Sequence record: OR532814.1
DNA: 64,000 nt
Reading direction: 5' to 3' (one strand)
Source of the DNA: Klebsiella phage RCIP0020
Shown: positions 61,648 to 63,714 of the stretch, one piece after another
Layout of the letters: every line of letters begins with the position of its first letter
How positions within the stretch are numbered: the stretch's first letter is position 1
Program-made: the position numbers and the translations under genes
Notes under the pieces: model-generated
What the model saw: only the letters and a program-made list of their open reading frames with translations
Databases searched by the model: none
Told to the model about the DNA's origin: nothing

Positions 61648-63714
61648 ATGATTATGGATTATGAATCAATAATTGATGGAATTATGCAAAATTATCAGCA
61701 TCCTTGTGATGCTGAGATCCCCGCTGGCTATTATCGGCGGGTTATCTGGCAAGGGCATACAGAAAATTATCCGGCTGTTGGGGTTGAGTGGGATACCGAG
61801 ATAATCAAAATCGGTACTCATCTTTATACTCAAGAACCGTTCGGACATAGAAGCACGGATCTACCTGTTGTCAATTCACCAGGAACAGATCCAAATACCG
61901 GACAACCAACAGGGATCCTTGTTCCAAAGATCGGTTATTATTTCAACACTCAAGCAGAAATTGATGCTTACATTACATCCATTGGTGCAACTAAAATCAA
62001 TGGTGGTAATGATTGGTATGGTGCGGATCTGTCAAAATCAAACCTATACAAAAACCCTGGCGAACTGGCTATGTATAAGGTCGAAAACAGTGGCGGGTAT
62101 CTTTCCGGAACAAACCCTGTATGTGATGCTCGCATACGTCAGGCGTATAATCAGGACACTGGCGCATTCACCAATATTGATTATTATTGGAATGGTAATC
62201 GTATAGCCTATATGAAGCATGATGAAACAGGGGCGCACCAATGCAAATATACGGGTATGCAGGTTAACACCAACGCAGATACAAGCATTCCTCCTGTTCC
62301 TCCTGCAATGCCTTCCACTTATGGGGCATTACCGAGTGAATTAAGCCGTGCTGATATTTCGTGCATTCCGGCAACTGTTGGTTTCGCATATACAAATATC
62401 AGTGATGCTATGTTACAGGCATGGAACGAAACCCGTAATACGTTCAAGCTACAGTTTAACATGTTAACGGGTGCTGTACAGAATGGATTCGGGATCGCGA
62501 CGATGTTTGATGGTTTATCCGTATCGATGGAAGAAGTAATGGCGGGGGCGCTCGCATTGTCACAGCAAGCATGGCAAACTGCTATGAAAGTTTTCAGACA
62601 AGTGATTAGCGCTGCATTTAACATTATCGGTGGTGCATGGGGATTGATTAATCGGTTCTTGCCTCAAGTAACCATCTTAGGTGTTGCGATCAACATTTAC
62701 GATCTGGTGTTTGGTGATAATTCTGTTCAGACTTTGAAAGATGCGTTTAATGCAATCATCAAATCCGGACAACAAACATATGAAACCGTCATAAACGCAA
62801 TATACGGGGCCATAGGAAGCGCATACAATTACTCTGTGGAATATGTCAAAGCTGGCGCTCGCGACCTTGTGGATGCGTGTAGCGCGTTATTTGATTGGTG
62901 TTTAACGATGTTCCAAAACGGTTGCGTTGCATTAATCGACTTATACGGTCGGATCATGCAAACATGGGCTATCCCTCCGGAAGTCCCAAACCCGTTATGG
63001 TCTGCGGTGCTGGCTATCCGTAACATCATGATGCAAATCAAACCACTTGATATAATTCTGGGCGGTAACTTCCCTGGATTCACTGCAATGGATTTGTATC
63101 AACAAGCACAGGAAAAAGTCAAGGCTTTTGTTGATGAGTCATACGAACAGATCCGAGGGCTTTATGAACAGGGACAGGAACTTTACAAAACGTTAAAAAA
63201 TCAGATTTTCGAACGTGATACAATTCAGAGAAAATTCAACCAGTACTTAAACTGGATGTGGGGCGCTGTAACAGACGAAGCAACAGCGGCTTATCAATCT
63301 GCATTGGATGCTGCAAACGCTGCTGTAGCTGCAACACAGGCCGCGTATGACGCTATACAGGAACAGATTGGATCTCTACAAGATGCAATGAAAGATACAT
63401 ACAGCATGGCGATGGAAGAATTAAAGAAATTGCCTTTGATGAGTACAATAAACGAGTTTTTAGGCTTCTGTGGTGTCGCATTTGACGATCTTCTCAAGTC
63501 ATATGAAAATGCGATTACTGGTGCTCAGTCTCTGTACAAAAATTTCATTGATAGTTCTCGCTCGTTTAAAGATCACTGCAAAGTAATCTATAACCAAATT
63601 TGTACGCTGGCGTTGAGTAAAGTCACACAATATGTGAATAAATTGCTGTCTCTCATAGGATTAGCAATCAACTTTGGTTCGATTAGTGTATGTGTTCCAG
63701 TACTGAAATACTAA
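61648..63714 (+). CDS. large hypothetical protein (688 aa) occupying the gp5.1-5.4 slot between gp5 and gp6
   Basis: ORF starts 2 nt after the gp5 stop and ends just before the gene 6 late-promoter motif. N-terminal globular region, central hydrophobic segment (GGAWGLINRFLPQVTILGVAINIY), Ala/Gln-rich coiled-coil C-terminal third, hydrophobic tail. No PAAR motifs seen. Confidence 0.5.
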   Translation: MIMDYESIIDGIMQNYQHPCDAEIPAGYYRRVIWQGHTENYPAVGVEWDTEIIKIGTHLYTQEPFGHRSTDLPVVNSPGTDPNTGQPTGILVPKIGYYFNTQAEIDAYITSIGATKINGGNDWYGADLSKSNLYKNPGELAMYKVENSGGYLSGTNPVCDARIRQAYNQDTGAFTNIDYYWNGNRIAYMKHDETGAHQCKYTGMQVNTNADTSIPPVPPAMPSTYGALPSELSRADISCIPATVGFAYTNISDAMLQAWNETRNTFKLQFNMLTGAVQNGFGIATMFDGLSVSMEEVMAGALALSQQAWQTAMKVFRQVISAAFNIIGGAWGLINRFLPQVTILGVAINIYDLVFGDNSVQTLKDAFNAIIKSGQQTYETVINAIYGAIGSAYNYSVEYVKAGARDLVDACSALFDWCLTMFQNGCVALIDLYGRIMQTWAIPPEVPNPLWSAVLAIRNIMMQIKPLDIILGGNFPGFTAMDLYQQAQEKVKAFVDESYEQIRGLYEQGQELYKTLKNQIFERDTIQRKFNQYLNWMWGAVTDEATAAYQSALDAANAAVAATQAAYDAIQEQIGSLQDAMKDTYSMAMEELKKLPLMSTINEFLGFCGVAFDDLLKSYENAITGAQSLYKNFIDSSRSFKDHCKVIYNQICTLALSKVTQYVNKLLSLIGLAINFGSISVCVPVLKY

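Follow-up and report, generated by a model that had tools for sequence, protein, structure and literature searches.

An open reading frame (ORF) of 688 amino acid residues (aa) lies between genes 5 and 6 in the 64,000-nucleotide stretch of Klebsiella phage RCIP0020 DNA analyzed in this study (OR532814.1; the whole stretch is referred to as the window). Its product is most probably a non-PAAR protein that caps the tip of the spike protein gp5 in a single copy and reaches the periplasm together with the spike. The assignment to the spike tip is supported by synteny, by the mutual exclusivity of this protein family with gp5.4, which is the PAAR protein of T4, by the covariation of the gp5 tip and by a low-resolution cryo-electron microscopy (cryo-EM) map of phage RB43 (PMC12407873). 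The ORF starts with ATG and occupies positions 61648–63714 of the plus strand, one base after the stop codon of gene 5, in agreement with the original prediction, which was made from the letters of this DNA. The small genes that this prediction placed between genes 5 and 6 of T4 were also seen, and the T4 interval carries 5.1, segC, 5.3, and 5.4.

Homologs of the 688-Residue Protein

That the ORF is a genuine gene is clear from the sequence data, because full-length homologs are found in 215 phage records and 46 columns are invariant in an alignment of 46 members of the family. The identities to the most distant homologs were 41–47%. A search of 5.8 billion proteins returned 62 clusters at 90% identity, all of which were full length and about 670–760 aa long, and a profile search of all 1.84 billion representatives at 50% identity returned ~8 full-length clusters plus fragments. 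Thus, the family is a narrow one, restricted to T4-like phages of enterobacteria. An identical protein (100%) is encoded by Klebsiella phage Roth22, and the identity is 99% or higher in ~100 records of Klebsiella and Enterobacter phages of the KP15/Slopekvirus type. It shares 79% identity with ORF205w of RB43 (YP_239181) across 688 of 690 residues, by which it is a full-length ortholog of ORF205w.

No Pfam family matched the protein. In PHROGs, its residues 3–688 matched positions 1–685 of phrog_5296 (E = 0), the function of which is given as unknown. A relationship to gp5.1 was also considered. Homology between the N-terminal domain and gp5.1 was rejected, as the hhalign probability was 0.1% with a four-member gp5.1 profile and tblastn gave no match. 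In database records the gene is labeled "hypothetical protein" or, in Roth22, Roth88, and phi1_146007, "tail length tape measure," so that relatives do not quite carry it as a well-annotated baseplate protein.

The genome of Roth22, assembled from five loci, was used as the whole-genome proxy for the window. The two are not colinear in a fixed-offset comparison because of indels, though the 688-aa protein is identical.

Mutual Exclusivity With gp5.4

PAAR proteins were sought in one complete genome (Roth22), in the window and in the ±6 kb flanks of 17 other loci. Two hidden Markov models (HMMs) were used: a narrow 57-sequence one built from 56 gp5.4 homologs and a broad one of 17 sequences, to which PAAR proteins of Acinetobacter, Vibrio, Aeromonas, Campylobacter, and jumbo phages were added. 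The broad HMM recovered T4 gp5.4, the positive control, at an E-value of 4e-47. No gp5.4 or other PAAR protein was found in the window or among the six-frame ORFs of Roth22 by tblastn, phmmer, or either HMM, which answers the original suggestion to look for a separate gp5.4 homolog elsewhere in the genome. The 688-aa protein itself had no PAAR match in Pfam, and the broad HMM matched nothing better than an E-value of about 5 among the 46 family members. The lack of PAAR-like repeats noticed originally is therefore confirmed by both searches. PAAR was also absent among the 25 of 75 matched Pfam families that were listed for 146 small ORFs, which is uninformative.

Two candidates for a missed PAAR protein were rejected. 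A PAAR domain hidden in the 688-aa protein or elsewhere in Roth22 was not found by tblastn, phmmer, or the two HMMs. A 91-aa "tail protein" of Roth22 (11187–11462, minus strand), which is outside the window in the early region by dexA, was LysM-like instead; it belongs to phrog_8272 and has matches to endolysin and gp53-type families.

The junction between genes 5 and 6 was compared across T4-like genomes. The family gene adjoins gene 5 in all 18 loci that carry it, and no PAAR gene was found within ~6 kb in any of the 18; gene 6 is the next gene in 16 of them. The loci are from Slopekvirus, Karamvirus, Pseudotevenvirus, Dhakavirus, Moonvirus, Bragavirus, and S13-like phages. In the S13-like phages, the family gene keeps to gene 5 despite gene 6 lying elsewhere. 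A query with T4 gp5.4 found 1471 phage records, including those of Krischvirus and of Aeromonas, Acinetobacter, Vibrio, and Campylobacter phages. In T4, Krischvirus, and the Aeromonas, Acinetobacter, and Vibrio phages, gp5.4 is encoded directly 5′ of gene 6, and it remains beside gene 6 in phage Aes012, in which genes 53-5-5.1 are inverted. None of the 56 PAAR-type loci contained a member of the 688-aa family. The 688-aa family and gp5.4 are mutually exclusive, and their never occurring together suggests that they fill the same functional slot.

Other features of the same interval were also observed. The inversion in Aeromonas phage Aes012 (locus L018, 909–4794) places genes 53, 5, and 5.1 in the opposite orientation to 5.4-6-7. 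The gene for gp5.1 is thereby separated from that for gp5.4, a point of relevance to the gp5.1-gp5.4 complex that has been suggested in the literature. Locus L026 (IMG/VR UViG_648936715) has, between the tip-protein gene and gene 6, an ORF of 225 aa (8097–8774) with an HNH-like motif (HHHIIPKSMGG...), and locus L027 has about 0.85 kb of extra DNA at the same place. The interval also holds homing endonuclease genes in T4 (segC) and Krischvirus MIZ4 (HNH). Because of the inserts in T4, MIZ4, and L026, the interval between genes 5 and 6 is apparently a recurrent landing site for homing endonucleases.

Covariation With the Tip of gp5

The gp5 proteins encoded next to the two types of tip gene have different C-termini. 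Those next to the family gene end in ...G(A/G)xVQVG, whereas the PAAR-type proteins end in ...DGSRI(D/N)xG. All 18 family loci had the VQVG ending, which did not occur in any of 55 PAAR-type gp5 proteins. The tip of the window gp5 was 53, 45, and 29% identical to the tips of S13, PM2, and T4, respectively. Without its tip, the window gp5 was 52% identical to that of T4, and its closest relative was the PAAR-type gp5 of Krischvirus (62%). Similarly, the gp5 of KM16 (Moonvirus) was 74% identical to T4 gp5 in its body and 27% in its tip, while its tip was 68% identical to that of WG01. Judged from these identities, the gp5 tip follows the type of the downstream gene and not the phylogeny of the gp5 body. 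The conflict between body and tip therefore points to the distal gp5 β-helix plus the 688-aa gene as the exchanged unit. Joint exchange is what would be expected if the two surfaces have to match.

Predicted Fold

A single-chain model of the 688-aa protein was built by AlphaFold2 (AF2) with the 46-sequence alignment. Its predicted local distance difference test (pLDDT) score was 87.3 and its predicted template modeling (pTM) score was 0.78, according to which the modeled fold is compact and confident. The model has a mixed α/β N-terminal third, a helical remainder with helices at residues 293–327, 403–440, 480–534, 543–582, and 636–668, and a final β-strand at residues 679–687. Foldseek found no match to the model in the PDB (TM-score at most 0.15), and the N-terminal domain as modeled is without a known fold. 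Among the 46 sequences Cys20 and Cys199 are invariant, and H18 is not conserved.

The internal hydrophobic stretch, the Ala/Gln-rich helical region and the hydrophobic C-terminus that had been described before were all borne out by hydropathy, composition, and the AF2 model. The hydrophobic stretches are at residues 337–355 (Kyte-Doolittle 1.60) and 667–685 (1.91), and residues 481–600 are composed of 15% Ala and 11.7% Gln. The Ala/Gln-rich hairpin region is the source of weak matches to tape-measure, apolipoprotein, and coiled-coil proteins.

Of the 46 sequences, 43 have both Cys239 and Cys682, and the same three lack both. Moreover, each of these three sequences is nearer to relatives that have the cysteines than to the other two. 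Because the paired losses are apparently independent in the three cases, Cys239 and Cys682 are probably in direct contact, by a disulfide or by shared metal ligation. The paired losses also imply, at the level of sequence covariation, that strand 239–244 contacts the C-terminal strand. Thus, the C-terminal tail belongs to the folded body and is no membrane anchor.

Published Proposals for the Spike Tip

The original prediction considered the protein apparently undescribed for T4; the gene is undescribed no longer, as the proposal that it is a spike-tip protein is already known from work published in 2025–2026, including work on Slopekvirus. RB43, RB16, and Lw1 were reported to lack gene 5.4 and to have orf205w in that locus (Mattenberger et al., bioRxiv 2025, revised 2026; PMC12407873). 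[quoted passage not shown] A cryo-EM map of RB43 at 17.7 Å has a larger protein on the spike tip, into which the AlphaFold model of orf205w fits, and orf205w was termed a "putative" tip protein (PMC12407873). The following year, gp203 of the Slopekvirus Helios, a Klebsiella phage, was also proposed to be the spike tip; it is the same protein (Viruses 2026;18:942, PMC13611949). In an AlphaFold3 (AF3) model, one Helios gp203 is seated on the gp202 trimer via a hydrophobic base, and its triple coiled-coil core consists of residues 287–327, 398–440, and 631–670 (PMC13611949). These core segments coincide with helices in the independent AF2 model of this study.

New in this study are the breadth of genera (Dhakavirus, Moonvirus, Bragavirus, Karamvirus, and S13-like phages) and the quantified exclusivity with gp5.4. 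The conflict between the body and the tip of gp5, the contrast between linkage to gene 5 and linkage to gene 6, the N-terminal domain without a known fold and the Cys239/Cys682 pair are also new.

Proposed Function and Alternative Explanations

In the proposed mechanism, the 688-aa protein would be made late and be translationally coupled to gp5. One copy would probably sit on the gp5 trimer, capping the flat end at the C-terminus of its β-helix, which is the site of gp5.4 in T4. The three-helix core (residues ~287–327, 398–440, and 631–670), in which a conserved hydrophobic segment follows each helix, would provide a pseudo-threefold base, and these hydrophobic segments plausibly form the gp5-binding platform. 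The novel N-terminal domain, together with the long hairpin of helices, would make up the extended, membrane-facing part. Contraction of the sheath would then drive the protein with gp5 through the outer membrane into the periplasm. We infer that the tip density of RB43 is this protein, and the 1:3 stoichiometry, the gp5-binding surface and a role at the membrane or lipopolysaccharide (LPS) are inferred as well.

Several points weigh against a spike-tip protein of this kind. We found no virion mass-spectrometry report that names a protein of the 688-aa family, and no virion-proteomics evidence of use came from the papers on Jiaodavirus (ValerieMcCarty), KP15/KP27, Morganella MP1, and phiEap-3. 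Co-expression of orf205w with a fragment of the gp5 β-helix failed to give a complex (PMC12407873). Because the RB43 map has a resolution of 17.7 Å and was calculated with C6 symmetry imposed, its density is not assignable to a chain (PMC12407873). As the protein has no PAAR fold, the match between a monomer and a threefold tip is given by predicted models only. An internal triplication of the three core segments, which was looked for, was weak (hhalign probability of 26%) and is not claimed. Finally, plain linkage of adjacent DNA contributes to the co-inheritance of tip and gene and is not fully separable from selection.

Other functions were weighed against the same evidence. The protein may instead be a membrane-active effector or translocon, whose helices and hydrophobic segments insert in the host membrane after delivery and form or prime a conduit for DNA, like those of α-pore-forming toxins such as ClyA, Hbl, AhlC, and YaxB or type III translocators such as IpaB. 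A tip protein could also have such an activity in addition, and thus it is not a strict alternative. This possibility, which corresponds to the effector part of the original prediction, is unlikely, while the structural or spike-associated part of that prediction is supported by synteny, exclusivity, the gp5 tip, and the RB43 map. The best PDB sequence match of the protein is Hbl-B, at a non-significant E-value of 0.012, it has two moderately hydrophobic segments, and the spike and tip proteins of P2 are delivered to the periplasm (PMC12407873). However, no family-level match to toxins or translocons was found in Pfam or PDB sequence searches, and the similarity is that of helices in general. 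Moreover, a single 19-residue window exceeds a Kyte-Doolittle value of 1.6, and it is modeled as the end of a helix, a loop, and a β-strand. Given this moderate hydrophobicity, the compact modeled fold (pTM 0.78) and the paired loss of Cys239 and Cys682, which places the C-terminal tail in the folded body, insertion in the membrane by transmembrane segments is not favored. In a bolder version, the tip protein would refold in the periplasm, where the hairpin of residues 480–582 and the core helices would extend and the novel N-terminal domain, through its invariant WYGAD...E...EN motif, would engage an envelope component and help to bridge or open the inner membrane for DNA. By analogy, this would be similar to viral fusion proteins or α-pore-forming toxins. 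Although quite improbable, it would, if true, mean that PAAR was replaced in several enterobacterial T4-like genera by an entry device of a new class, carried on the spike.

The protein could also be a late protein that is not part of the virion, such as a chaperone that assists the assembly of the VQVG-type gp5 trimer or of the hub, in which case the RB43 tip density would have another source. The failure to recover a complex with the gp5 fragment would fit such a role (PMC12407873), as would the tight linkage to gp5. The protein is also missing from the virion proteomes that were read, though none of the phages concerned is known to carry the gene. However, the covariation is specific to the distal ~70 residues of gp5, which are its exposed tip, and the protein is large, highly conserved over its whole length and equipped with a surface-exposed novel domain. 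In addition, the AlphaFold models of two groups dock it on the gp5 tip (PMC12407873, PMC13611949). A chaperone is disfavored because the extra mass at the tip has no other candidate, and no PAAR was found in Roth22, the window or the family loci; we regard it as very unlikely. Least credible is a tail length tape measure protein, the function given by a few automated annotations (Roth22, Roth88, and phi1_146007). It would account for the weak matches to tape-measure families in PHROGs (E-values of 1.7e-8 to 3e-3) and for the weak profile matches, next best after the family itself, to proteins with PhageMin_Tail or TMP_3 domains. These matches are restricted, however, to the Ala/Gln-rich residues ~470–660, where they coincide with low-complexity, apolipoprotein-like helices. 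No tape-measure Pfam domain was matched, the model is a compact globule instead of an extended rod, and the true gp29 ortholog (597 aa) is encoded in the hub cluster 27-28-29-48-54. With the matches of low complexity and a genuine gp29 present, a tape-measure identity is effectively refuted. The matches through these apolipoprotein-like helices explain the labels, which are wrong.

Gene Borders and Features of the Window

The coordinates of the genes and features discussed here are listed in Table 1. Gene 5 of the window was identified by its Pfam domains (Gp5_OB, 1.1e-58; Phage_lysozyme, 1.1e-11; Gp5_C, 1.6e-9) and by identities of 48% to T4 gp5 and 80% to ORF204 of RB43. Its TAA stop codon at 61644–61646 is separated by a single base from the ATG of the 688-aa gene at 61648. 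This gap and the AGGTAGG sequence suggest, as read from the DNA, that the 688-aa gene is translationally coupled to gene 5. In PM2 and S13, the gp5 stop codon overlaps the start of the family gene. Downstream, 32 bases separate the end of the 688-aa ORF from the ATG of gene 6 at 63747. The part of gene 6 in the window has 68% identity to residues 12–86 of T4 gp6 (tblastn).

The late-promoter motif that had been placed at gene 6 was found in altered form. The exact T4 late-promoter octamer, TATAAATA, does not occur on the plus strand across the whole window, whereas a CTAAATA variant overlaps the stop codon of the 688-aa ORF. A second copy lies 40 nt 5′ of the start of gp53. The heptamer is not enriched overall, with 8 copies found and 11 expected. 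In phage Aeh1, CTAAATA was reported to be the core of the late promoter (PMC1524935), and a variant late promoter before gene 6 is plausible from the position of the motif.

Table 1. Coordinates of the 688-aa gene, its predicted parts and the adjacent features in the window.
Feature	Coordinates	Strand	Basis or remarks
Gene 5 (baseplate hub subunit, tail lysozyme, cell-puncturing spike; 589 aa)	59877..61646	+	Pfam; identity to T4 and RB43
Gene 5 3′ end, last ~70 residues of β-helix, tip type ...TKITGATVQVG	61434..61643	+	Co-occurs with the 688-aa gene
Shine-Dalgarno-like AGGTAGG	61636..61642	+	Within the end of gene 5, 5 nt 5′ of the ATG of the 688-aa gene; read from sequence
688-aa ORF, putative non-PAAR spike-tip protein (phrog_5296)	61648..63714	+	Ortholog of RB43 ORF205w and Helios gp203
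N-terminal α/β domain (~aa 1–220)	61648..62307	+	Invariant C20, C199, W123-G-A-D127, E139, E146-N147
Cys239 codon, start of strand 239–244	62362..62364	+	Covaries with Cys682
Core helix 1 (~aa 287–327), followed by conserved hydrophobic segment 337–355	62506..62628	+	AF2 helix 293–327; hydropathy
Core helix 2 (~aa 398–440), followed by invariant PPxVPNPxW motif	62839..62967	+	AF2 helix 403–440; P444, N448, and P449 invariant
Ala/Gln-rich long helical hairpin (aa 480–582)	63085..63393	+	AF2 helices 480–534 and 543–582; composition
Core helix 3 (~aa 631–670)	63538..63657	+	AF2 helix 636–668; literature
C-terminal β-strand (aa 679–687, including Cys682)	63682..63708	+	AF2; the "hydrophobic tail" of the original prediction
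CTAAATA heptamer, candidate variant late promoter	63711..63717	+	Overlaps the stop codon of the 688-aa ORF; 36 nt before the gene 6 ATG
Gene 6 5′ part (baseplate wedge)	63747..64000	+	Runs past the window end; complete gene seen in the Roth22 locus

Other features were observed elsewhere in the window or in Roth22. An ORF of 269 aa (57092–57901, plus strand) lies between genes 3 and 2, on the strand opposite to both, and is preceded by CTAAATA at 57066. It matches phrog_7322 (unknown function, E-value of 7e-165), and ORF200w of RB43 occupies the same place. It may be an uncharacterized late or structural protein. The hub cluster is at ~13.0–20.3 kb of the window (Roth22 58157–65374; locus L008, 10157–17374) and consists of gp27 on the minus strand followed by 28-29-48-54-26-51-25 on the plus strand. 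This cluster, in which the true gp29 lies, is far from gene 24, and the order in T4 is instead 25-26-51-27-28-29-48-54. Such a rearrangement of the hub cluster is typical of RB43-like genomes.

At 4270–4346 (plus strand) ARAGORN found a single tRNA with a CAT anticodon, which is of the Met type and could be of the Ile-lysidine type. At the equivalent place, the Roth22 record has a tRNA-Ile and a second tRNA, tRNA-Gln, which is either a disagreement of annotation or a real difference between the phages. In Roth22, a 738-aa ORF labeled "minor tail protein" (68065–70281, minus strand; about 22.8–25.1 kb of the window) sits among leftward, early-type small genes, apart from the structural modules. 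The regions at 72–78 kb and 90–91 kb of Roth22 (about 27–33 and 44–46 kb of the window) encode a DNA methyltransferase, a nucleotidyltransferase, a cytidyltransferase, and a radical-SAM/Fe-S oxidoreductase, and genes annotated as anti-CBASS acb1 and acb2 are also present in Roth22. The title of one report mentions an unknown DNA modification in KP15/KP27-type phages (PMC5219037), to which the methyltransferase/nucleotidyltransferase cluster could relate.

Implications and Comparison With Known Systems

In phages of Klebsiella, Enterobacter, Citrobacter, Cronobacter, Proteus, and Escherichia coli, PAAR has been swapped for an unrelated 76-kDa protein together with a matching gp5 tip. [quoted passage not shown] As T4 gp5.4 affects fitness and the dependence on the LPS inner core, the alternative tip may influence host range and the routes to resistance. 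The phages that carry the family are widely used therapeutic candidates. Database records of the family gene should drop the labels "hypothetical" and "tape measure."

Few parts of contractile injection systems are as conserved as the spike tips, and nearly all known tips are PAAR proteins or fused apex domains. The PAAR-repeat spike-tip proteins belong to Pfam family PF05488, with PDB entries 4KU0 and 4JIV. Similar to the 688-aa protein, T4 gp5.4 and related PAAR proteins are products of genes located between genes 5 and 6, are expressed late and are presumed to sit as a single copy on the blunt end of the gp5/VgrG β-helix. However, the 688-aa protein is seven times larger than T4 gp5.4 (97 residues) and mostly helical, has no evident conserved metal site of three His and one Cys, and does not have the conical β fold with pseudo-threefold symmetry that is characteristic of PAAR. 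The linkage is also different, as the 688-aa gene is linked to gene 5 and T4 gp5.4 to gene 6. With the tape measure proteins (PF10145 PhageMin_Tail, PF20155 TMP_3, and T4 gp29), the 688-aa protein shares long, Ala/Gln-rich amphipathic helices and weak profile matches; it differs from them in having no tape-measure domain, in its compact predicted fold and in the separate gp29 of the genome.

In phage P1, an α-helical tripod of UpfB is placed on the PAAR protein UpfC (cited in PMC13611949). UpfB resembles the 688-aa protein in being an α-helical extension past the spike with a distal loop, and thus helical structures of considerable size can be borne by the spike tip in contractile phages. P1, however, retains PAAR and has, in addition, a separate helical protein in three copies, whereas one chain without PAAR is proposed here. 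Closest of all are ORF205w of RB43 and gp203 of Helios. Both are encoded at the same place after gene 5, next to the same type of gp5 tip, and are predicted to have an α/β N-terminal region of ~220 residues followed by a helical body with a three-helix core. They do not differ substantively from the 688-aa protein, with which they form the same family.

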